Below, piece after piece: positions 4,421 through 58,093 of a DNA stretch of 64,000 nt. The position numbers and the translations under genes were made by a program. Every line of letters begins with the position of its first letter. Position 1 is the first letter of the stretch. The notes beneath the pieces were generated by a model. It did not search any database. It was given only the letters and a program-made list of their open reading frames with translations, and was not told the DNA's origin. Source of the DNA: a phage; the NCBI GenBank assembly GCA_014161675.1, contig GCA_014161675.1_4760.1. One strand, 5' to 3'.

Positions 4421-7400
4421 TTAAAGCGCCTAGTGTAACTAGCTTGACAATAGAAAAATTGTCTGCTAATCAGGCGTATATCACATGGGATGACGTAGGC
4501 GAAAACTTCTTTTATTTTGTGGAGTTAGCCGAAACCAGAACACGAGACGGGGAGATCATCCCCGTCGATGAGTTAAGCTGGGTAAACCTGGGATATACTG
4601 CCGACCAAAACTGGTTTGAGGATAAAAACCTTTTTCCAGAATATTATTACAAGTTTCGTGTAGCAGTAGCCGCAGAAGGATTTGAACAAAGTAAATGGGT
4701 TGAAACAGAAGAGTTTCAGACATTTAAAACAAACGCATATAATTTTTCTATGATGCGAGAGTTCAACCTTGCAAACGAGTTTATAAAGGAAAAATTTACA
4801 TACGATAATCGAGAGTATGTCAAGTTTAATACTGACCTGATTCAAGCATCATTAATGAAGGAAGATTTTGTCTTTAGTCCTGAATATGCAAACATGACAA
4901 ATATCTCAAACTACATTGTAGTGGATGAGAACTTTCATGAAATACAGGATCACATAGAAAAAGTTTGTACTGATATAAACCGCACTATGTTAGCGGAAAT
5001 GAACGGTGTTTTGTACCTTTTCGAACGGTTCCAGCCGATCGTGAAAGTGTCAAATGATAAAGGCCAATCATGGAAAGCATACAAGGCTTTTAATGACCGT
5101 GTAGGCAATCCGGTTTCCCGTACATGCGTTTATCAGTCTAAAACCACTACTTACGTTTTAGGATATGACCGAATCTTTTACGGACGACAAGCGAGCGATA
5201 CTCGATGGAGCGCGGACGATGTTCGATTTAGTGATGATACGATCACTTTTGCAAAGGTCGGTGACGAAAACGATTTAGGCTTTGACGTTGAGGTCTTTGG
5301 TGTATTTTCCAGATTAACAGGTGATACCACAAAATACGCCGAAGCTATGGCGTGTAGTGATGACTATTTGTGGGTTGGTGCTAAAGATGTTATTCGCAGG
5401 ATTCGTCTTAAGAATACTCCTGTTGATACCGTACAGGGTTCGCCTACGTTTGGAGAAAAAATATTCGATCCTGATGTTATCCGAGTAACAGGAAATGATA
5501 AAGCTGTCATTCAGAAAATGGATGTGATCGACGGTAAATTGCTTGTATTTGTTACGGGTGAAGTTAAACAGCGTTATCAAGATCCAACTAAACCAGAAAA
5601 CGTTGTTCCGTCAGATGATGCGGGTGTATACTTAATAGGGAGTGATGGTCTGTCTTTTCAGAGAGTATTTGGCAACACTCCGCAGGAAAGGGAATATATT
5701 CAGCATGGGTTCAGTAATATGTCAACCAATGGTGATGAGGTGTTCATAAGCCATTATAATCATCACTTCGAAAGCATTTTACCTGATCCAGAAACTGCCG
5801 AGAAATATGAATTGGGCGAAGCTGTAAAATATTCTCAGGAGCCAACTTATCTAACTGATAAGAAAATACATCAAACTACTTTCAGAGCAAGTTATGATGA
5901 TTTGCGTATTTGGGAGTTAGGACCGCAAGCGTATTATAACGAGGCTGATTATACATGGATGCGTCGAAACGGTGTCCGTGTGTGGATCACAAATGATAAT
6001 CGCCCGTTGGTTGTTTATCCAGAGGTTATCTATACTCAAGAAGTTGATACGTCTGGCATTCTTGACCAAAATAGGGTCAACCGAGAAGTTTATGATAAAG
6101 GGACCGTGACCTGTTATCTTAACAATGTTAAATTTGAAGGATTCAAACAATATGCATCCGGTGTAATGTTCCATAAAAACACAGGAGAGATCATAGGATT
6201 CTATCAATTTAATTATCGTGTTCGTGATCAGGTTGGTGTATATTGGAAACCTACAAATGTAGCATTTGTTGCTGAATTGCAAAATCAGGTTCGAGAGGTT
6301 CCCTGGGTTCCGGTTCACTACGATCGAGAGCAAGATCCAGATTTGCGGCCTTTACTGAATAAGATGACCCCTGATAGCTTTTTACTTGAGAACGAAAATT
6401 TCAGAAAATTCTCTGAATATTATCTGCAATTCTTAAGCGATGGTTCAGGAACATATTATAATAAACTAAAAAATCTGATTAAAAACAAATATCCACGCGA
6501 GAAAGATGCATATGAGTATCTTTGGTCAGAGATGAACAAACGAAACATCTATGCAGATAAAAACAAGCGAGATGCGGTAGTAAGATTCTTTGAATCCCGC
6601 AAATCAGATTTTTATTCCACTAAGGGCGTGGAGGCTTCTTATAAGTTCTTGTTTAAGTTACTTTATAATGAAGATGTGGAAATTGAGGTTGAATCACAAG
6701 CCGGACTAGAGTATGATATTGTTGTTAGTTCAACGAACATTGACGAGGATATCGTAGGTCGCACGATTTATACTCCAACCGGACGGGCTAACGTGACGTA
6801 TCTTGAAAGGGAATATGAAGGTGGTCGCCTACGCTGGCGAGTAACCATTCATAACCTGATCGGGCGGTTCGAAGAAGGTCAAGTGATCAAATCAGAGAAA
6901 ACAGCGTTTGAAGGGATGATCCTTGTTGGTGTACGTGGTAAAGAGTTGTTGAGTAGTTCAATCGACTATATCAACCGCTCACGAAGCCAATACACCATGA
7001 AGATTAAAAGTGCATTGCCAGTTTCGCGCTATGCAAATGATGTAATGCGATTCGTTCATCCTGTCGGCTTTGGGTTTATCGGTGTTACCCTGCTTACAAT
7101 GTTCATTAACAGCGGGTTAAGCATGAAGCACACCGAGACTATAATTCAATCTCTGAAAAATTATAAGTTTGACAGCGGATTGCCTAGCGTGTATCCTGAT
7201 CGGGTGGCAGACCTTGACGTTGACGGAAACATTAAGAAAGACCCGCTTACCGGAAAAGCATTATATTTGACTTCACCTTTAATTGGTGAAGAATTTCCGG
7301 TTCCTCCTGAATATGATCAGGAGAACAGCGAATTGTTCCACGGACTTAAAGCAAGCGAACGAAGATTTGCAATGAGTCCACTGTTTGACCAGTCGGCGGT

Positions 7401-48385: not shown

Positions 48386-50437
48386 TTACATTTTAAATTT
48401 ATCTGGCATTGCGTCTACAGATACCAGATCAGCGATAAGCTGACGTAGAGTTGCCTTATCTGCTTTCTTACGTTCGGTTTTAGCTTCGCTAATGAAGCTG
48501 GAGAAAGACAGGTCAGAAGCAGGTTTAATAACACCTTCACGGATGAATGCATCACCGTCCGCGATCATCTCGCCAGATTCTTGTAATGCTGCCAGTTCAT
48601 TTTTGTTCATAATATGTGCCTCAATGTAATAAGTTTCTTGTGAATCCGTCGATGCCGTAGCACGAGTTACCGTATCAAAGGATAACACAACACCGCGAGG
48701 AAGTAAAATCTCGCATTCTTTGTAAGCAAATGCTTTGTTACCTACTGGCAATACAGGGATGTTTTCCGCGCCAGCAATGGAGAAAGCAACATTAGCGCCA
48801 CCTTCACCGCGAGAGCCAGCCATAGAGTCAACACCAGCAACGGCACTAGCCACGTTTGCATTCCAGCCGCCAAAAATGTTAGGTGCAAGGGAAGTGCTCA
48901 CATAGTTTTTAAAGTAAAACGCTTTTTGCTTACGTGCAGTTTCCCACATTTGCGACCGGAAGTCCATACCACGATACAGAATAGTACCCGGATCAAGTTT
49001 AACGCCATAGTTGGAGAAGGCATTATCCAGTGCATCGCACATCTTGACCAATTCTTCTGGATCTGCGATGCCTTCAAACTCTTCCAGCTTACGGTCGGTT
49101 AGGAAGTTGTTCATATTGATGTATGCTGCATCGGCATATTCGCTCAACACAAAACCTTCCGCGCCTGGCAGATCAAGATCAATATCTGCCATCATTTCAC
49201 CCATGTTGCTAGCAATTGCTTCAAACATACCGGAGGCAACATTACGTAGGGCATCGGTTTTAATCTGGGTGATATGACTACGCAGCATTTCAGCTTTTAC
49301 ATCTGCTGGCATAGACTGGTCTACTCGATCCATTGCCAGGGCGGTGATCTTGTTTTCGAATACTTCCTCGCTCATGATTTCTTTTAAGCGTTTGACCGAG
49401 GCTGCGATAACTTCCGCAGACAATGGATCATATTGATCCTGAACTTTTACCAGTTCGCTTACTGCGTATTTTGCATCGGCTTCGCTTTCAAAAATAGTAC
49501 GCATGAAACCATAGCGAGTGATAATATCACTTGTCCAGTCATTCAGAGAACGAGCGGTTGAACGTTCTAAGGCTTGACGGTCAATCAGAGTATTAAACTG
49601 TTTCTTAGGTTCTGCTTCGGTGATATCTTCTTCCGGTTTAAGATTAATTTTTTCTGGATGATTCACATAGTCGCTGTTATAGGTCGCTTGAGTTTTCAGC
49701 ATTTCTTCTTTAGTCAAACGAGATTTAGCCGCTACGCGTTGTTCTGCTTCCGCGTTTCGTTCTTCTTCTGACACAAGACTAGCCGCATATGCCTCATCTT
49801 TAGTCAGAGATTCACCAGTAGCCTTAGATACCCAGCGATCACCTAAATCACTTTCTACTTTAGTGAACAAGGATTCATCAAGTTTAATCCCTTTAATCTT
49901 ATCAATCGCCATCCCGCGACGCTTGACAACAACTAAAGCGATCTTTTTGCTGGTCATTACTTCCTGCTGGAATACTTCAAACTTCGGTGTACGACGCACC
50001 AAACGCTCTATAACGCGCTTAACCAGTTCGGTCTTACCTTTCATGCGGGATACGTTAAAACGGAACATAACAGCGTCTAATTGCGCTTTACGGGCTGTTT
50101 CCATAACCACATCAAAAGCACTTGACATAACTGCAATCGGGTTATCGCCTAGACCATTTTTAAGCTGTACAATACGACCGCTTTTGTTCATTTCGCACAG
50201 TACAACATGTGCGGTCTTGTCACCCATACGAATGATTTTAGGTGTTTTGTTGGTGAAGTTACAAAGACGGACAATCACATCTTTATCGCGTGTCTGTACT
50301 GCAAAAAGCTGTTTAGGATTCTGCTTAGGCTTTAAGCACTGTACCGGAGCAATCCTGCCAAAGTTTTCTTCCTCTTCCGTCAACAGCCATTTCTCGAAAG
50401 ATTCAATCATTAGATCGTCGATTTCTAAGTTAAACAT
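48386..50437 (-). CDS. alt: Alt ADP-ribosyltransferase
   Basis: 683 aa (T4 Alt 682); 'ILYRGM', 'YVSTS', 'ECEILLPRG'. Confidence 0.8.
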   Translation of the reverse strand: MFNLEIDDLMIESFEKWLLTEEEENFGRIAPVQCLKPKQNPKQLFAVQTRDKDVIVRLCNFTNKTPKIIRMGDKTAHVVLCEMNKSGRIVQLKNGLGDNPIAVMSSAFDVVMETARKAQLDAVMFRFNVSRMKGKTELVKRVIERLVRRTPKFEVFQQEVMTSKKIALVVVKRRGMAIDKIKGIKLDESLFTKVESDLGDRWVSKATGESLTKDEAYAASLVSEEERNAEAEQRVAAKSRLTKEEMLKTQATYNSDYVNHPEKINLKPEEDITEAEPKKQFNTLIDRQALERSTARSLNDWTSDIITRYGFMRTIFESEADAKYAVSELVKVQDQYDPLSAEVIAASVKRLKEIMSEEVFENKITALAMDRVDQSMPADVKAEMLRSHITQIKTDALRNVASGMFEAIASNMGEMMADIDLDLPGAEGFVLSEYADAAYINMNNFLTDRKLEEFEGIADPEELVKMCDALDNAFSNYGVKLDPGTILYRGMDFRSQMWETARKQKAFYFKNYVSTSLAPNIFGGWNANVASAVAGVDSMAGSRGEGGANVAFSIAGAENIPVLPVGNKAFAYKECEILLPRGVVLSFDTVTRATASTDSQETYYIEAHIMNKNELAALQESGEMIADGDAFIREGVIKPASDLSFSSFISEAKTERKKADKATLRQLIADLVSVDAMPDKFKM

Positions 50438-50720: not shown

Positions 50721-50756
50721 TTGATACTCCTTAGTAGTTCGTTTCGGTATGGGTGT

Positions 50757-50785
50757 ATTATGATATACACCATCTGTTATGTCAA
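50757..50785 (-). promoter_or_regulatory. Early sigma70-type promoter unit 1
   Basis: Minus strand TTGACA, 17 bp, CATAAT; inverted repeat GGTGTAT/ATACACC spans the -10. Confidence 0.5.
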
Positions 50786-50791
50786 CAACTT

Positions 50792-50971
50792 TTAGAACAT
50801 TTTTGAAATTAATTCTGCTTTGATTTCGCAGAGAACATCTAAAGATTTCTCGTCACCCGCTTTTGCTGCTTCTGCTTGCATTTTTGAAATGGCTTCAATG
50901 TCAGTGCAATTATAAGCCGCTTGAACTTTAGCGATTGCGATGATTGCCGATTCGATGGTTAAGTGTTTCAT
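50792..50971 (-). CDS. small hypothetical early protein (59 aa)
   Basis: Hand-translated 'MKHLTIESAIIAIAKVQAAY...'; behind promoter unit 2; below the ORF-track cutoff. Confidence 0.45.
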   Translation of the reverse strand: MKHLTIESAIIAIAKVQAAYNCTDIEAISKMQAEAAKAGDEKSLDVLCEIKAELISKMF

Positions 50972-51003
50972 GTTTGATTCTCCTTTCGTTTCGGTATGTG
51001 TGT

Positions 51004-51032
51004 AGTATAGGGGATCACCGATCCCCTGTCAA
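51004..51032 (-). promoter_or_regulatory. Early promoter unit 2 with palindromic spacer
   Basis: TTGACA, spacer GGGGATCGGTGATCCCC (17-bp palindrome, two GATC), TATACT. Confidence 0.55.
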
Positions 51033-51040
51033 CAACTTTT

Positions 51041-51559
51041 TTAGTTATTTTTTAATTGCTCATCTTGCAATAGGGCAATCACATGCTGGCGATGTTCTTC
51101 CGATTGAGGCACACCGAAAAAGTTTGTTTTGTAGAAATACTCTAATCGGTCTTCTCGTGTGCTCTCTTCCATCATGATCGCGGGTAGTCCGAGATTTCGG
51201 AAACGTCGCTTTTCTGCTGGCGTAAAATCACTGTAATACAACATAGAATCATCATTACCAGCAATGCTAAACTCATCCTTCATAAAGGAGAATATTGCGT
51301 TTAAACGCTGTTTACCGTCCACGATTTCGATCTCATAGCGAGAGCCATCATCAATCTTAGCCATTGCGATAGCACCAACCGGAAAATCATTAATCAGGTT
51401 TTCGATAAACATACGTTTGTTTTCTGTGTCCCATACTAAAGGACGCTGATAATCTGGGTTCATGTTGATATAGCCATCTTCTAACCACGCCTCATAAACA
51501 GAGATTACAAAGTTTTTAGTATTGGTATAGTAACGGCGTTTAGGTGTTAAACGGTTCAT
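51041..51559 (-). CDS. DUF262 / ParB-like (GmrSD N-domain-like) protein
   Basis: 'YQRPLVWDTENK...IVDGKQRLNAIFSFM' resembles the DUF262 DGQQR region; ATG 51559 with AGGAGA RBS preferred over TTG 51595. Confidence 0.5.
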   Translation of the reverse strand: MNRLTPKRRYYTNTKNFVISVYEAWLEDGYINMNPDYQRPLVWDTENKRMFIENLINDFPVGAIAMAKIDDGSRYEIEIVDGKQRLNAIFSFMKDEFSIAGNDDSMLYYSDFTPAEKRRFRNLGLPAIMMEESTREDRLEYFYKTNFFGVPQSEEHRQHVIALLQDEQLKNN

Positions 51560-51560
51560 G

Positions 51561-51893
51561 TTATAGTCTCCTGAATGGATCATCACGTAAATCAATATCT
51601 TTTAAGAACTCATCCCATGAATGGCGGATATTGTTCTTAATTCTCCAGATAAGAGCAGGGATTGAACGCTCTCCCATCTGGAAGTATGGATCATATGATC
51701 CGTATGCCCAATATGCTACTACAATTCCACAATCAGCGCAATAGTATTCTATTTCACTTGCTGGCGACCAAAGTCCATCAATATGATCGGTGATCTTGCT
51801 TTCGATGTTATGGCTATGACAATCAGGGCAACGGATGCAATGACCTTGTTTATCGTAATTTGACGTTAGCGAATACTTAAACAATCTCATCAT
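51561..51893 (-). CDS. zinc-ribbon protein
   Basis: 110 aa with 'CIRCPDC' and 'CADC' Cys pairs. Confidence 0.5.
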   Translation of the reverse strand: MMRLFKYSLTSNYDKQGHCIRCPDCHSHNIESKITDHIDGLWSPASEIEYYCADCGIVVAYWAYGSYDPYFQMGERSIPALIWRIKNNIRHSWDEFLKDIDLRDDPFRRL

Positions 51894-52606
51894 AGATCCT
51901 TATTTGCTTCAAATACTGCCTTTGCGAATCCTCGCGGGGTAAGTGACCTGATAGTCTTTGTTTTCGTTCCTTTCCCGCCTAGCTTAGAATGCTGTTTACT
52001 GTACCCTTTATTAATCTGCAACGGTTTCTTTTCTGGCATTATAAAGCCTTGTCCGGTCCATAAGCAAGTCTTTTTCGGGTACATATCACGGGCGGCGATA
52101 TACTCAGGAAAAGTAGGATGTTTATCATCTTCCGGCAAATAACCGCCATATTCCCACGGGTGGAACATGTAATCAGGCTTACGCCACATGCTAGAGATAA
52201 CGCTTACAGGATTCTCTATCATGTAGGGAACTCCTAGCCATTCACCCAAATAAGCGGTTATTTTAGCTGCCCTTACATCATGAACTTGAATCAATGGTCC
52301 TTGTTCTCGTTTCTTTCGTTCAAAGTGTGCAGCGCCACTAACAGCTAAATTGGTGCACGGTGGGAATGCAAAGATAATATCCGGTTTCCCCCATTCAAGG
52401 TCCATTGCTCTTTCCAGCCAATTCAAATCAATCCAGGTGTTTACATAGGTAATGTTTGGATGTTCAAATCTGGTATTATACTTTTTGTATGTGCCGTGGT
52501 CGCCATCATCAGCATTAAAGCAGATCACCTTATGACCTGCTTTAGCCCATTCTAGCCCCATTATCCCCGATCCGTCAAAGTTACAGAATATTAATTTTTG
52601 TTTCAT
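51890..52606 (-). CDS. compact C5-cytosine methyltransferase-like protein
   Basis: Motif I 'LIFCNFDGSGIMG', motif IV 'FAFPPCTNLAVSG', motif VI 'MIENPVSV', motif X-like 'IRSLTPRGFAKAV'; only 238 aa. Confidence 0.55.
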   Translation of the reverse strand: MKQKLIFCNFDGSGIMGLEWAKAGHKVICFNADDGDHGTYKKYNTRFEHPNITYVNTWIDLNWLERAMDLEWGKPDIIFAFPPCTNLAVSGAAHFERKKREQGPLIQVHDVRAAKITAYLGEWLGVPYMIENPVSVISSMWRKPDYMFHPWEYGGYLPEDDKHPTFPEYIAARDMYPKKTCLWTGQGFIMPEKKPLQINKGYSKQHSKLGGKGTKTKTIRSLTPRGFAKAVFEANKDL

Positions 52607-52848
52607 ATACGCCCCTTTAATCCAACACAGATTTTAGAAGGTTCTTTGCCGTGCCACATTAAGTAAAGTCCGTTAATGCGGCCTTGTTTTGTATATGATT
52701 CTTTTCTGATCTTCTTATAGTGTCGTGTTTCCTCAACTGATTGTTTAGAATACCAATCATAAAGGAAGAGGCACAAAGGCCAACCATTAGCGGCCTTAAT
52801 GCAGTTATTAAGAAATTCCTTATTGCGTTTAATTAATTTTCTTTTCAC
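52603..52848 (-). CDS. hypothetical protein
   Basis: 81-aa ORF in operon; start overlaps upstream stop. Confidence 0.45.
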   Translation of the reverse strand: MKRKLIKRNKEFLNNCIKAANGWPLCLFLYDWYSKQSVEETRHYKKIRKESYTKQGRINGLYLMWHGKEPSKICVGLKGRI

Positions 52849-53096
52849 GCTGCCCCCATTGGTTTGATAGTAACAGAATCTAAAAGACCTTTGTTAGCCA
52901 GTTCGCGGCAAGTTTTCAGATCCGCAACTTCCCAGCCAGCCGCAATCAGGTTATCAATCAGGCTGTTAGCAACTTCTTCGCTCATGAAAGAGCACTGTTT
53001 GCCGATGGTGTAGCGTACACGCTGTAATTTCAGTTTACGGAAGCCTTTAACGTTCAGGTCTTTAGCGATTTTCTTTGCGGTTTCGATGTTAGCCAT
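52845..53096 (-). CDS. hypothetical protein
   Basis: 83-aa ORF, first gene behind promoter unit 3. Confidence 0.5.
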   Translation of the reverse strand: MANIETAKKIAKDLNVKGFRKLKLQRVRYTIGKQCSFMSEEVANSLIDNLIAAGWEVADLKTCRELANKGLLDSVTIKPMGAA

Positions 53097-53136
53097 TGTT
53101 TGATTCTCCTAAGTGGTATCTCGTCTTGATGGTTGT

Positions 53137-53165
53137 ATTGTAGGGGAGTTATCCTCCCCTGTCAA
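53137..53165 (-). promoter_or_regulatory. Early promoter unit 3 with palindromic spacer
   Basis: TTGACA, spacer GGGGAGGATAACTCCCC (17-bp palindrome), TACAAT. Confidence 0.55.
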
Positions 53166-53179
53166 CACTTTTTATAAAA

Positions 53180-53347
53180 TTATTTGTTAATTTCTGGTGC
53201 GTTGCTAGGATAGTAACCTTCTTTAACTCCGAGGTATTTCGCAACCATCCCTACAATCTTCTGTGCTACTACAATGTCAAATTTCAGATAATCTTCGCCG
53301 TGGGTTTCAATGATATATGCTTCACATGCTGCTTTAGTCTCGAACAT
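53180..53347 (-). CDS. small early protein (55 aa), paralog of 56438-56605
   Basis: 'MFETKAACEAYIIETHGEDYLKFDIVVAQKIVGMVAKYLGVKEGYYPSNAPEINK'; below the ORF-track cutoff. Confidence 0.55.
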   Translation of the reverse strand: MFETKAACEAYIIETHGEDYLKFDIVVAQKIVGMVAKYLGVKEGYYPSNAPEINK

Positions 53348-53380
53348 TTTGATTCTCCTATTTCGTTTCGGTATGTGTGT

Positions 53381-53409
53381 ATTATAGGGGATCTCCTGAT
53401 CCCCGTCAA
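53381..53409 (-). promoter_or_regulatory. Early promoter unit 4
   Basis: TTGACG, palindromic spacer GGGGATCAGGAGATCCC, TATAAT. Confidence 0.5.
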
Positions 53410-53423
53410 CAACTTTTTTAAAA

Positions 53424-53705
53424 TTATTCGTGATTAGTTTCGATGTTGTGCATTTTGCACCAGTTCAGCCAATCACCCAGATCCTGATAGCTAATGCTTT
53501 TATCTGCTGCCATCGTTTTTGTCTTGATACCCATATGTGCGTTATGAGTAAGCATTTTTACAGTGAACTCAATTTTATCACCTTTAGCTTTAACATCAAC
53601 CAGTTTGGTCCACTGGCTACCAGCGCCGCGAATGTTCATACCAACGATGTTTCCGATGTATGCTTCTTTGTTTTTCAGGATTTCGGTTGCTTTGATGAAT
53701 TTCAT
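53424..53705 (-). CDS. hypothetical early protein
   Basis: 93-aa ORF behind promoter unit 5. Confidence 0.5.
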   Translation of the reverse strand: MKFIKATEILKNKEAYIGNIVGMNIRGAGSQWTKLVDVKAKGDKIEFTVKMLTHNAHMGIKTKTMAADKSISYQDLGDWLNWCKMHNIETNHE

Positions 53706-53738
53706 TTTTGATTCTCCAGTTCGTTTCGGTATGTGTGT

Positions 53739-53768
53739 ATTATGCTATGTTCTTACTTTGGTGTCAAC
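53739..53768 (-). promoter_or_regulatory. Early promoter unit 5
   Basis: TTGACA, about 18 bp, CATAAT, conserved leader ACACACATACCGAAACGAACTGGAGAATC. Confidence 0.5.
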
Positions 53769-53775
53769 AACTTTT

Positions 53776-54045
53776 TTAGATATTTTCAGAAATAAATTTT
53801 AAAACTTGACGTAAATGTTTCTCATCTTTGATGGTAGCCGGAAGTTCTTCTTTTACTTCCTGTGCAAGATAGATATTTCCGTTCCAAGTGAAAGATCCGT
53901 CTTCGTTTACGCGATAGCTGAACATCCACTCGCAATCATTTTCGATTTCATATACACACAGAAGGGTGTAATCGTTAAAGCTATTGATTTCAAGGTCGAA
54001 GCCGTGACGTTTTGCAAAGTTGGTAGTGGTTTTAGTCAGTGTCAT
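53776..54045 (-). CDS. hypothetical early protein
   Basis: 89-aa ORF behind promoter unit 6. Confidence 0.5.
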   Translation of the reverse strand: MTLTKTTTNFAKRHGFDLEINSFNDYTLLCVYEIENDCEWMFSYRVNEDGSFTWNGNIYLAQEVKEELPATIKDEKHLRQVLKFISENI

Positions 54046-54085
54046 TGTTTGATTCTCCTAAGTGGTATCTCGTTTCGATGTGTGT

Positions 54086-54114
54086 ATTATGCTATAGGCC
54101 GGATCTGGTGTCAA
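54086..54114 (-). promoter_or_regulatory. Early promoter unit 6
   Basis: TTGACA, 17 bp, CATAAT. Confidence 0.5.
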
Positions 54115-54170
54115 CAACTTTTTTAAAAATTTGGGCAATAAAAAGCCGACACTAAGGTCGGCTAATAAAA

Positions 54171-54817: not shown

Positions 54818-54863
54818 AATTTGATTCTCCTAGTTAGAAAGTGTATATCGTTTCGATGGGGAT

Positions 54864-54892
54864 ATTATGCTATATCCCCGATCCGGTGTCAA
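54864..54892 (-). promoter_or_regulatory. Early promoter unit 7
   Basis: TTGACA, 17 bp, CATAAT; inverted repeat GGGGATAT/ATATCCCC spans the -10. Confidence 0.5.
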
Positions 54893-54898
54893 CACTTT

Positions 54899-55192
54899 TT
54901 ATAAAATAATTTTTTGATATTTTTCTATGATGTTCGTGTAAGTCACATCAACCGCTAGCACCGTTGCTTCGAATCCACCGTTTAGCCAATGGCTATGATC
55001 ATGATCGTGAAAGAAACCTAGACCAGTACGAAGACCTTCTTTATATTCTGCGCGTACATTCAGTTTGTCGTCGATAAACAGATAAAACCATGAATTTTTA
55101 CTAGGATTGATGATACAACCTTTCAGATTAGGGAGAATATCACGACTAAGAATAAACTTATCACCTACTTTGAACATAATATTAGTCCTCAC
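54899..55192 (-). CDS. HxHW-family small protein (paralog 2)
   Basis: 'FYLFIDDKLNV...HDHDHSHWL...VLAVDV'. Confidence 0.55.
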   Translation of the reverse strand: MRTNIMFKVGDKFILSRDILPNLKGCIINPSKNSWFYLFIDDKLNVRAEYKEGLRTGLGFFHDHDHSHWLNGGFEATVLAVDVTYTNIIEKYQKIIL

Positions 55193-56434: not shown

Positions 56435-56437
56435 CTA

Positions 56438-56605
56438 TTATTTGTTAATTTCTGGTGCGTTGCTCGGATAGTAACCTTCTTTAACACCCAGATATTTTGC
56501 GACCATTCCGGTGATCTTCTGTGCTACTACGATATCGAATTTCAGGTAATCTTCACCGTGGTTTGCTACAATGTATGCTTCGCATTCTGCTTTAGTCTGG
56601 AACAT
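56438..56605 (-). CDS. small early protein (55 aa), paralog of 53180-53347
   Basis: Internal ATG at 56605 gives 'MFQTKAECEAYIVANHGEDYLKFDIVVAQK...', near-identical to the 53180-53347 product. Confidence 0.55.
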   Translation of the reverse strand: MFQTKAECEAYIVANHGEDYLKFDIVVAQKITGMVAKYLGVKEGYYPSNAPEINK

Positions 56606-56638
56606 TTTTATTCTCCCATATCTCGTTGGTATGTGTGC

Positions 56639-56668
56639 ATTATAGGGGATCACCGATCCCCTGTCAAC
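56639..56668 (-). promoter_or_regulatory. Early promoter unit 9 with palindromic spacer
   Basis: TTGACA, GGGGATCGGTGATCCCC, TATAAT; spacer identical to units 2 and 10. Confidence 0.55.
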
Positions 56669-56672
56669 AACT

Positions 56673-56966
56673 TTATAATGCTTTATATGCGTATTTCATA
56701 AATTTGTCTGCCACTTCATTGGCATGTTCAGATTCTACGCCTGATTCGAGAACAATAGCTAGGTCGGTTTCGTCATTCCCGCCGTACCAATGATTTGATG
56801 TTCGATTTTTTTCAATTGGAAATTGGTCACTTTTATCTGTGCGACAAAATACATCTAAATGCTCGTCGATGTAAAAGATCCAATCTTCATAAAGAATAAC
56901 GGTATTAGCCAGATTTTTATTGCCTTCAACGAAAGGTTCGGCTACAAACAAATTAGTATGTTCCAT
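56673..56966 (-). CDS. HxHW-family small protein (paralog 5, divergent)
   Basis: 'IFYIDEHLDV...SNHWY...LAIVLESG'. Confidence 0.45.
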   Translation of the reverse strand: MEHTNLFVAEPFVEGNKNLANTVILYEDWIFYIDEHLDVFCRTDKSDQFPIEKNRTSNHWYGGNDETDLAIVLESGVESEHANEVADKFMKYAYKAL

Positions 56967-57541: not shown

Positions 57542-57575
57542 GTTTGATTCTCCTAGTTCGTTTCGGTATGTGTGT

Positions 57576-57604
57576 AGTATAGGGGATCACCGATCCCCTG
57601 TCAA
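57576..57604 (-). promoter_or_regulatory. Early promoter unit 10 with palindromic spacer
   Basis: TTGACA, GGGGATCGGTGATCCCC, TATACT; conserved leader to AGGAGAATCAAACATG. Confidence 0.55.
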
Positions 57605-57616
57605 CAACTTTTTGAA

Positions 57617-58093
57617 TTATTTTTCTTGATGCTCGCGATCGTACTTTTCGAAATAAAATTCTACTGGCTGGTCGTGGATTGACAGCAAGCCAAAGCGTTT
57701 AGCCGCTCGCAATCCCATATTGCGCTGAATGTACTTCTGGAAGTTCTCGCGTATACACTTACGCCAGGATTCTAAGCCCATGCAGCTTTTATAAAGATTG
57801 CATTGCACACACGCCGGATTCATGTTATCAAGTATATCATGCTCCGGTTTATGCATTCCTACAACCTTATACTTCCACGATCCATCATCATTACGGGCAA
57901 TTCGTCCATTTTCATCATAGACTACCTTTGAGCGTCGCAATACTGGTTTGATGTGGTCTGCGTGCCAGCGATCCCCTAGTTCCTCGCCACAATAGGCACA
58001 ACGTCCACCATATTTCATTTTCAGGATCTGGCGTTGATCTTTCTTTGACAATTTTTTAGGTTTAGGGGCTTTCGCCCCTTCATTATCACACAT
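57617..58093 (-). CDS. HNH endonuclease (putative free-standing homing endonuclease)
   Basis: 'CAYCGEEL...HADHIKP...N...CVQCN' HNH/zinc motif; start overlaps ligase stop. Confidence 0.65.
   Translation of the reverse strand: MCDNEGAKAPKPKKLSKKDQRQILKMKYGGRCAYCGEELGDRWHADHIKPVLRRSKVVYDENGRIARNDDGSWKYKVVGMHKPEHDILDNMNPACVQCNLYKSCMGLESWRKCIRENFQKYIQRNMGLRAAKRFGLLSIHDQPVEFYFEKYDREHQEK

Follow-up and report, generated by a model that had tools for sequence, protein, structure and literature searches.

Positions 51,041–53,165 of contig GCA_014161675.1_4760.1, within the 64-kb stretch of phage DNA that was analyzed as a whole (hereafter, the window), hold five genes in series on the minus strand: two small genes (g83 and g81), a gene for a compact Dcm-like protein (MT238), a gene for a zinc-ribbon protein (Zn110), and a gene for a stand-alone DUF262 domain. 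The window represents a Krischvirus and is ~98% identical to the RB49 phage, in which each of the five genes has an ortholog (Table 1). The initial annotation of this stretch had placed five genes in series behind a promoter unit, and a near-consensus promoter followed by five minus-strand genes is indeed what we found there. It had also joined the methyltransferase-like, zinc-ribbon, and DUF262 proteins into a DNA-modification, anti-restriction, or inter-phage exclusion module. The reading that we favor, and hold to be probable, is instead that of a five-gene early cassette bounded by promoter-early stem-loop (PeSL) elements, carrying an orphan, compact C5-methylase next to Zn110 and DUF262 genes that are separate accessory genes.

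From the list of open reading frames (ORFs) and a reading of the sequence, all five genes are tightly coupled. The GTG start of g81 overlaps the g83 stop, and the starts of MT238 and Zn110 lie in ATGA overlaps with the stops of g81 and MT238, respectively. The DUF262 gene most likely begins at ATG 51559 (172 aa), which lies 1 nt past the Zn110 stop, has an AGGAG 8 nt upstream, and matches the RB49 annotation, while TTG 51595 (184 aa) is the less likely start. Region 50900–53300 shares 98–99% identity with the RB49-type coliphages (RB49, kaaroe, TB34, SAP, and GEC-3S), with 57 records spanning at least 80% of it. In existing annotation, RB49 p189 is named "DNA methyltransferase" (in other records "Dcm" or "C-5 cytosine DNA methylase"), and one record labels p187 a "DUF262 domain protein".

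Table 1. Genes of the cassette and PeSL elements in the window.
Feature	Description	RB49 ortholog	Coordinates	Strand	Evidence
g83	83 aa	RB49p190	52845..53096	-	ORF; phrog_14908 at 5e-59
g81	81 aa	RB49p189.1	52603..52848	-	ORF; phrog_7065 at 5e-38
MT238	238 aa; compact Dcm-like DNA C5-cytosine methyltransferase	RB49p189	51890..52606	-	phrog_757 "DNA methyltransferase" at 2e-90
Zn110	110 aa; four-Cys zinc ribbon	RB49p188	51561..51893	-	phrog_2993 at 5e-34
DUF262	172 aa; stand-alone DUF262 (GmrSD_N, ParB/Srx-fold)	RB49p187	51041..51559	-	Pfam GmrSD_N, E=5e-20
Upstream PeSL	promoter-early stem-loop		53118..53185	-	promoter scan 11/12 match; repeat-family member; sequence read
Downstream PeSL	TTGACA-17-TATACT with GGGGATCGGTGATCCCC stem-loop		50985..51052	-	promoter scan; repeat family
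PeSL series	each before a small ORF		50738-50805, 50985-51052, 53118-53185, 53362-53429, 53720-53787	-	
PeSL series, continued	each before a small ORF		54067-54134, 54843-54906, 56620-56687, 57557-57624	-	

The C5-methyltransferase (C5-MTase) motifs I, IV (PPC), and VI (ENP) listed for MT238 in the initial annotation are all present. Motif I (FxGxG) corresponds to F10-D-G12-S13-G14, follows the strand at residues 5–9, and is invariant in an alignment of the close family; in a wide family alignment it is more variable, and the Pfam and HaeIII/DNMT2 alignments put it in register. Motif IV (F81-P82-P83-C84) is aligned to P80-C81 of M.HhaI, and motif VI (E131-N132-P133) closes the strand at residues 128–133. 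Because sequence profiles stop at motif IV, motifs VI to IX were placed by topology and with the aid of a study of the K42 phage enzyme (discussed below), whose E128 marks a motif VI position that has no significant alignment. The stretch labeled "motif X-like" (R.LTPRGF) does exist, although its R220-S-L-T-P-R225 fits the motif IX consensus RxLTxRE, and no GN-type motif X was found by sequence inspection or profile search. K178-K179-T180 lies on the likely motif VIII strand, and the protein ends 13 residues past RSLTPR. As first described, there is no room for a large target-recognition domain (TRD), with only ~35 residues (W183 to R220) between the last core strand and RSLTPR.

Canonical enzymes are barely recognizable as relatives of MT238 at the sequence level. 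The Pfam C5-methylase model (PF00145) matched residues 10–100 only (E=0.027; 14.4 bits, cut-off 22), and an NCBIfam search gave no match. When PDB chains were searched with MT238 alone or with two family profiles, no significant relative was returned, the only methylase matches being N-terminal ones to DNMT2 and HaeIII (E 0.5–0.8). The family profiles aligned to M.HhaI via hhalign over motifs I–IV or motif IV only, without significance, and neither hhalign nor hmmsearch aligned MT238 past motif IV. The HhaI query was checked against 10mh_A, and its top 120 homologs were all 71–80% identical (plus the query's own 100% cluster), making for too shallow a profile. The structural model of MT238 is of high confidence, with DNMT3B and DNMT3A as its best structural matches, and by fold comparison solved C5-MTases are the structures closest to it. 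We conclude that MT238 is a very divergent, TRD-poor representative of the C5-methyltransferase fold.

The family to which MT238 belongs is large (7,310 clusters at 90% identity in a word-indexed search; 1,964 clusters at 50% identity, E≤1e-3) and is represented in ~3% of phage records (1,522 of 50,697), usually annotated as a DNA methylase already. Its members are nearly all stand-alone proteins of 205–265 aa, with rare fusions (P0260, P0268) to a C-terminal D12-class N6-adenine DNA methylase (563 aa) or to an HNH_2 endonuclease domain (348 aa). To our knowledge, they are among the most compact C5-methylase-like proteins. Across 74 members (30–53% identical to MT238), residues C84, E131, P133, P150, Y176, W183, and P191 are invariant, and F81, P82, N132, K178, T180, R220, S221, P224, and G226 nearly so. 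The gene is under purifying selection, its substitutions among Krischviruses being mostly synonymous (14:2, 13:3, and 19:3, synonymous:nonsynonymous).

Evidence for the activity of this family comes from another phage lineage. MT238 shares 55% identity over its full length (E=1e-91) with bas06_0055 of the KarlJaspers phage (236 aa, 711 bp), in which C82/E128/K175/K176 are aligned with C84/E131/K178/K179 of MT238. In a preprint on the retron Ec86, escape mutants of the K42 phage (a KarlJaspers-like Hanrivervirus) all had a disrupted 711-bp "dcm" gene, and expression of K42 Dcm, which the authors modeled on DNMT3A, was toxic only when the retron was present (10.1101/2023.08.16.553469). Liquid chromatography coupled to mass spectrometry (LC-MS) revealed 5-methylcytosine (5mC) on the Ec86 multicopy single-stranded DNA (msDNA), the enzyme was active when expressed alone, and both the effect and 5mC were lost in a C82A/E128A/K175A/K176A mutant (10.1101/2023.08.16.553469). 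Judged by its sequence, MT238 belongs with the compact "Dcm-like" proteins of phages, a family for which activity as DNA C5-methylases has experimental support. The stretch most variable between MT238 and its KarlJaspers relative, at ~residues 190–208, is likely the recognition loop.

In the reading that we favor, the host sigma70 RNA polymerase would transcribe the five coupled accessory genes from the PeSL promoter right after infection. Extending what is established for the C5-MTase family, Cys84 of MT238 would attack C6 of a flipped cytosine, Glu131 would activate the ring, and the methyl group of S-adenosylmethionine would be passed to C5, with a very short variable loop (~190–208) taking the place of a classical TRD. 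Most likely, the target of the enzyme would be a short motif that occurs sparsely in phage DNA undergoing replication, and its methylation would weaken the action of some host restriction enzymes, with the potential drawback of triggering methylation-sensing defenses such as the retron Ec86. Zn110 and DUF262 probably joined the cassette, which lies in the hyperplastic region of an RB49-like Krischvirus, through PeSL-mediated or illegitimate shuffling.

MT238 might, alternatively, not be a DNA methylase but act on RNA (as Dnmt2-type enzymes do on tRNA), transfer another group (carboxymethyl from carboxy-S-adenosylmethionine, Cx-SAM), or be inert. The sub-threshold Pfam score would fit such a role, as would the failure to identify motifs VIII and X and the absence of bulk modification in RB49 or TB34 DNA, and E. 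coli makes Cx-SAM. However, the K42 ortholog made 5mC on DNA, family members are fused to or lie beside DNA adenine methylases, the catalytic Cys and Glu are invariant in a gene under purifying selection, and no CmoA or CmoY genes stand alongside, all of which leaves this alternative very unlikely. The more particular candidate of a CmoX-like carboxymethyltransferase, considered for its PPC motif, conserved Arg220, and host supply of Cx-SAM, was rejected given the 5mC produced by K42, the absence of CmoA/CmoY, and the unmodified DNA of TB34; no residue of MT238 could be matched to HhaI N304.

A number of observations weigh against the reading of MT238 as an orphan methylase at work in this phage, some from the protein itself, some from the DNA, and one from the locus. 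The similarity of MT238 to canonical C5-MTases is sub-significant throughout (Pfam, PDB chains, and HhaI profiles); neither motif VIII (QxRxR) nor motif X (GN[A/S]V) was identified by sequence, hhalign, or hmmsearch; and the methylase activity ascribed to the Krischvirus protein draws on its relatives. The K42 result is that of a preprint, was obtained in a dcm+ host, and assumed the CCWGG target from E. coli Dcm instead of mapping it (10.1101/2023.08.16.553469). Since the putative recognition loop differs from that of K42/KarlJaspers Dcm, the specificity of the latter is not transferable to MT238. HpaII and NheI, both sensitive to 5mC, cut RB49 DNA (PMC4041780), and high-performance liquid chromatography with mass spectrometry (HPLC/MS) of TB34 virion DNA gave zero modified nucleosides (PMC13390438); the cytosine of Krischvirus DNA is reported as unmodified, a correction to the initial annotation, in which relatives of this phage use modified cytosine. 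Any methylation on packaged DNA is therefore sparse or absent. These two results exclude all-C, CpG, or other dense methylation and are compatible with a rare motif, as HPLC/MS was evidently blind to the sparse host Dam/Dcm marks, the TB34 lysates having come from DH5alpha (PMC13390438). The CCWGG motif is itself 2–3-fold depleted in the window (24 sites vs. 52.9 ± 6.7 in shuffles; 0.3 of the Markov expectation), which argues against reliable protection of CCWGG, as avoidance would then be unnecessary. The BASEL work found no simple link of such methylase genes with restriction resistance (PMC8594841). Lastly, MT238, Zn110, and DUF262 are kept together and translationally coupled in 57 of 57 Krischvirus records, and a lineage-specific functional link within the genus is possible.

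Depletion of restriction sites in the window extends well beyond CCWGG. While only 2% of non-palindromic hexamers are missing from it, 27 of the 64 six-base palindromes are wholly missing, including the sites of EcoRI, HindIII, BamHI, PstI, KpnI, SalI, XhoI, NcoI, PvuII, and SmaI. The Markov ratios were 0.38 for GGCC and 0.36 for CCNGG, and no avoidance was seen for GATC, GANTC, GCTAGC, or TCTAGA. From this composition, the present phage, with its unmodified DNA, seems to escape restriction chiefly by avoiding the sites, which narrows the part that its methylase could play. The SAP phage is 99.96% identical to TB34, yet carries hydroxymethylcytosine (hmC) and glucosyl-hmC in its DNA, a difference left unexplained in that work (PMC13390438). 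The cassette was ruled out as the cause, being identical in the two phages (0 differences in 2,180 nt).

The CxxC zinc-ribbon character initially assigned to Zn110 holds, with two conserved knuckles (C22xxC25 and C52xxC55) that the proteins of Krischvirus, JenP1, and FelixO1 share without change, accompanied by a conserved WAYGSYxP motif. Its match to Pfam Zn_Ribbon_TF is sub-threshold (E=5.6e-4; 19.8 bits, cut-off 29), and a survey from 2006 already listed a TFIIB zinc-ribbon match for RB49ORF188c (PMC1524935). Homologs of Zn110 are found in 293 phage records, including Felixounavirus (FelixO1), Nonagvirus, and JenP1, where they are located among small early genes; in the homolog loci examined, no methylase or DUF262 gene lies nearby. 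Two other functions were tried and ruled out, namely an HNH nuclease (no HNH match) and a trans-acting TRD (no Zn110 beside a methylase elsewhere). The upstream 109-aa ORF of Lw1 was also tested as a Zn110 homolog and is not homologous.

The DUF262 protein contains the DGKQR region that was first noted, as well as YQRPLVW (YQRxxVW) and NFFGVPQSEEH (NFxGVPQSEEH), all three being invariant in short homologs. Its matches to PHROG and PADLOC profiles (NsnA, PD-T4-2_A), which are longer, cover the N-terminal half of each only, a DUF1524/HNH nuclease domain is absent by Pfam from this and the other four cassette proteins, and the cassette has no separate GmrD-like gene. The protein is therefore no type IV restriction enzyme as such, and the proposal of a GmrSD-like nuclease fails on its missing nuclease half. 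An AlphaFold2 model, only moderate in confidence (predicted local distance difference test score 71) because the word-indexed homolog search gave 7 proteins only, has the ParB N-terminal nucleotide-binding fold and is closest to the ParB N-domain, PadC, SspE, KorB, DndI, and BrxU. As modeled, it amounts to a lone ParB/Srx-fold domain, in contrast to a GmrSD enzyme, and probably acts as an NTP-binding ParB/Srx-type switch without a nuclease of its own. Its gene, like that of MT238, is under purifying selection.

Short DUF262 homologs are found in 325 records, mainly of T4-like phages (RB43-like, Pseudotevenvirus, Slopekvirus, and similar). In two of these, Lw1 (5504–6463) and vB_KpnM_M1 (5504–6418), an ORF of 304–319 aa overlaps the upstream short DUF262 gene by 4 nt, and the pair may form a conserved two-gene unit. 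This ORF has no Pfam domain in the RB43-like/Slopekvirus phages and no counterpart in the Krischvirus cassette. The possibility that the DUF262 homologs of these phages lie beside a C5-methylase was ruled out, as no recognizable methylase neighbor was found in Lw1 or vB_KpnM_M1. Such a distribution, mainly in T4-like genera including Pseudotevenvirus and Slopekvirus, would suit an inter-phage exclusion function, in which DUF262, together with a nuclease partner (in those phages, perhaps the overlapping ORF), would recognize the hmC/glucosyl-hmC DNA of co-infecting T-even phages, contribute to its destruction, and spare unmodified Krischvirus DNA. We consider this the least probable of the alternatives, given that neither the DUF262 protein nor its cassette neighbors contain DUF1524/HNH, that the candidate partner has neither a Pfam domain nor an equivalent here, and that the methylase would be left with no role.

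A second role for a nuclease-less DUF262 protein would be that of a countermeasure accompanying modification, whereby it acts as a decoy or dominant-negative subunit that poisons host GmrSD-family type IV enzymes (BrxU, SspE-like), which would otherwise attack phage DNA bearing 5mC made by MT238. In GmrSD, BrxU, and SspE, DUF262 forms the regulatory domain at the N-terminus; its motifs, but not the nuclease, are retained in the phage protein, whose gene is under purifying selection. Moreover, BrxU cleaves 5mC DNA, and the Krischvirus TB34 escapes BrxU restriction (PMC13390438). The resistance of TB34 is, however, more simply explained by its unmodified DNA, SAP is BrxU-sensitive despite having the identical cassette, and the short homologs in RB43-like and Slopekvirus phages have no recognizable C5-methylase neighbor. 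As heteromer formation is also conjectural, we regard a decoy of this kind as improbable.

The distribution of the genes speaks to whether they form a module. We fetched 80 viral loci with MT238 relatives, 79 of them outside Krischvirus. In none of the 79 did tblastn and phmmer with the five cassette proteins place Zn110, DUF262, g81, or g83 at 5 kb or less from the methylase gene, nor did a hidden Markov model (HMM) of DUF262 find a DUF262 gene there. The methylase gene occurs in at least five unrelated contexts, such as the lambdoid nin region (two Dam-family genes, methylase, NinG, RusA, and Q), a site next to an SNF2 helicase, T1-like phages with an adjacent DUF3987 helicase-like gene, and large myoviruses in which it adjoins genes for a DnaB-like helicase and a polymerase. 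Helicases and polymerases are thus among its neighbors in other phages, as are NinG, RusA, Dam, and N6_N4 methylases. Nucleotide comparison gave distant relatives in other phage groups for no part of the cassette but the methylase. The MT238-Zn110-DUF262 trio was seen only in the 57 Krischvirus genomes, which are near-identical (95–99% identity), and its co-retention carries little weight because these genomes are too similar. In kaaroe, an extra 59-aa ORF (locus 2159–2338) splits Zn110 from DUF262. A C5-methyltransferase fold, a zinc ribbon, and DUF262 are therefore real parts of this locus, while the claim that they constitute a conserved module finds no support in their separate distributions. 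The comparison favors Zn110, DUF262, and MT238 as independently distributed accessory genes that share one PeSL cassette.

A three-part modification machine, in which TRD-poor MT238 needs DUF262, and perhaps Zn110 as an adaptor, for action on double-stranded DNA (dsDNA) or for choosing its sites, has some precedent. For a phage thymine dioxygenase to work on dsDNA, a ParB homolog that has no DNA-binding domain is needed (ParB176/5mYOX176; PMC13229309), and ParBc genes are found with many phage C5-MTase-like CmoX genes (1,660 ParBc sequences over 5,615 contigs; PMC12783734). The ParB-N-like fold of DUF262, the near absence of a TRD from MT238, and the translational coupling kept in every Krischvirus record agree with this picture. 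Set against it are the 79 other methylase loci without a DUF262 or Zn110 neighbor, the ORF inserted in kaaroe, the closeness of the Krischvirus genomes, the activity of the K42 ortholog when expressed alone, and the absence of GmrSD_N and ParBc among the 25 listed of 58 matched families from 149 neighbor clusters. A three-part module is thus unlikely in our estimation. By analogy, the Krischvirus DUF262 protein, possibly with Zn110, could be a partner of MT238, either as a dsDNA activator or targeting factor or as a decoy shielding 5mC DNA, a prospect to which we give the same low probability. If true, a partnership would be the first role for a stand-alone phage DUF262 domain, would explain how an almost TRD-less methylase finds its sites, and would extend the ParB-activator principle to cytosine methylation.

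We return to the reading of separate accessory genes in one cassette and to the elements that bound it. The upstream promoter reads TTGACA-17-TACAAT (53165–53137), with the −35 hexamer TTGACA at 53165–53160 and the −10 hexamer TACAAT at 53142–53137; the spacer between them holds the stem-loop GGGGAGGATAACTCCCC (GGGGAGG...CCTCCCC), and an AGGAG ribosome-binding site lies between the promoter and g83. The downstream PeSL ends the five-gene unit and drives the next gene, g59, while its 5′ flank codes for the final DUF262 codons. In the cassette part of the window, PeSL promoters form an 8-copy repeat family, and the elements have the features of RB49-type PeSLs, namely a sigma70-like promoter, a GGGG...CCCC stem-loop, a Shine-Dalgarno sequence, and repetition between early ORFs. 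An Rfam scan of the cassette region returned nothing significant. A dense PeSL series is the known architecture of the RB49 hyperplastic region, and the PeSLs of RB49 and phi1 are experimentally active promoters and terminators as well as hot spots at which modules are shuffled within these regions (PMC2839356). The PeSL between RB49 ORF190 and ORF191, which is the upstream boundary here, is a published recombination crossover site (PMC2839356).

Some further observations concern these elements and their surroundings. SAP has a 79-bp tandem duplication of the PeSL directly after the DUF262 stop (SAP locus ~1600–1720, corresponding to ~50985–51060 in the window), which TB34 is without, and the two phages differ by a further indel ~2.4 kb upstream, in the transcriptional sense, of the DUF262 gene start. 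A 238-nt direct repeat (84% identity; 53179–53416 and 56437–56674) covers the small early gene g55 and its PeSL, and the two copies have the look of paralogous cassettes. A gene for a 683-aa Alt-like ADP-ribosyltransferase (48386–50437; Pfam ADPrib_exo_Tox at 2.4e-9), the ortholog of RB49p184, follows the cassette region a short way downstream.

The first two genes of the cassette are less conspicuous. g83, which among the loci examined is confined to Krischvirus, is weakly similar by PADLOC (E=2.6e-5) to the C-terminal part (positions 722–785) of the defense reverse transcriptase DRT UG35; the likeness could be a shared small domain or chance. g81 is the least constrained of the five genes, with 5 synonymous vs. 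9 nonsynonymous changes against L005, and is precisely deleted in the Shigella phage JK32 (Krischvirus; JK32 locus 2394–2445), in which the methylase begins at the GTG that otherwise starts g81. Recombination between two similar start regions, GTGAAA..AAATTAAT and ATGAAA..AAATTAAT, apparently gave rise to the deletion. g81 is dispensable; JK32 also lacks g59 and g55.

The methylase itself is an ordinary, already-annotated member of its family, and the cassette is of a known mobile regulatory type. The retron Ec86, triggered by the MT238 homolog, is native to E. coli BL21(DE3) (10.1101/2023.08.16.553469), and RB49 stocks have been grown on E. coli B (PMC4041780). By analogy, growth of RB49 on an Ec86-bearing E. 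coli B would suggest that either MT238 spares the msDNA or Krischviruses evade the retron. What interest remains in the locus attaches to the specificity of MT238, to its possible interplay with Ec86 when the host is E. coli B, and to what stand-alone DUF262 domains do.

Compared with known systems, MT238 shares the class I SAM-methyltransferase fold and motifs I, IV, VI, and a IX-like motif with the canonical C5-MTases (PF00145: M.HhaI, E. coli Dcm, and DNMT3A/3B), among which DNMT3, its best structural match, also has the shortest TRD. Unlike these enzymes, it has no recognizable motif VIII (QxRxR) or motif X (GN), is 90–230 residues shorter, and offers ~35 residues where M.HhaI has a TRD of ~100 aa. 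Its closest characterized counterpart is the Dcm of K42/KarlJaspers (Bas06, Hanrivervirus), a member of the same family of near-equal size (236 vs. 238 aa) with aligned catalytic Cys, Glu, and Lys-Lys residues, both being stand-alone orphan enzymes among early or replication genes. This counterpart differs in coming from another phage family (a 51-kb siphovirus) and in its neighbors, which include neither Zn110 nor DUF262; given the dissimilar loop at ~190–208, the target motif of MT238 may differ from that of the K42 enzyme, the one assayed (in a preprint).

With the GmrSD/BrxU/SspE nucleases, the DUF262 protein has in common the N-terminal ParB/Srx-fold domain and its QR...W, DGxQR, and N..G...E motifs, whereas it is only 172 aa long, without DUF1524/HNH, and has no GmrD-like gene in its cassette. 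ParB176/5mYOX176, and ParBc genes or fusions beside phage DNA methylases and CmoX, offer a parallel in that a post-replicative DNA base-modifying enzyme of a phage has as its neighbor a small protein of ParB/Srx fold that lacks an obvious DNA-binding domain. The protein here belongs to the DUF262 branch and not to ParBc (PF02195), and its co-occurrence with this methylase family is conserved in one genus only. Finally, the PeSL and ORFan cassettes of RB49 and phi1 (Arbiol et al. 2010; PMC2839356) hold one ORFan each, while the cassette described here holds five genes, constant in content except for the loss of g81 in JK32 and the small insertion in kaaroe; the element type, the genome region, and the strong early promoter/stem-loop on both sides are the same.

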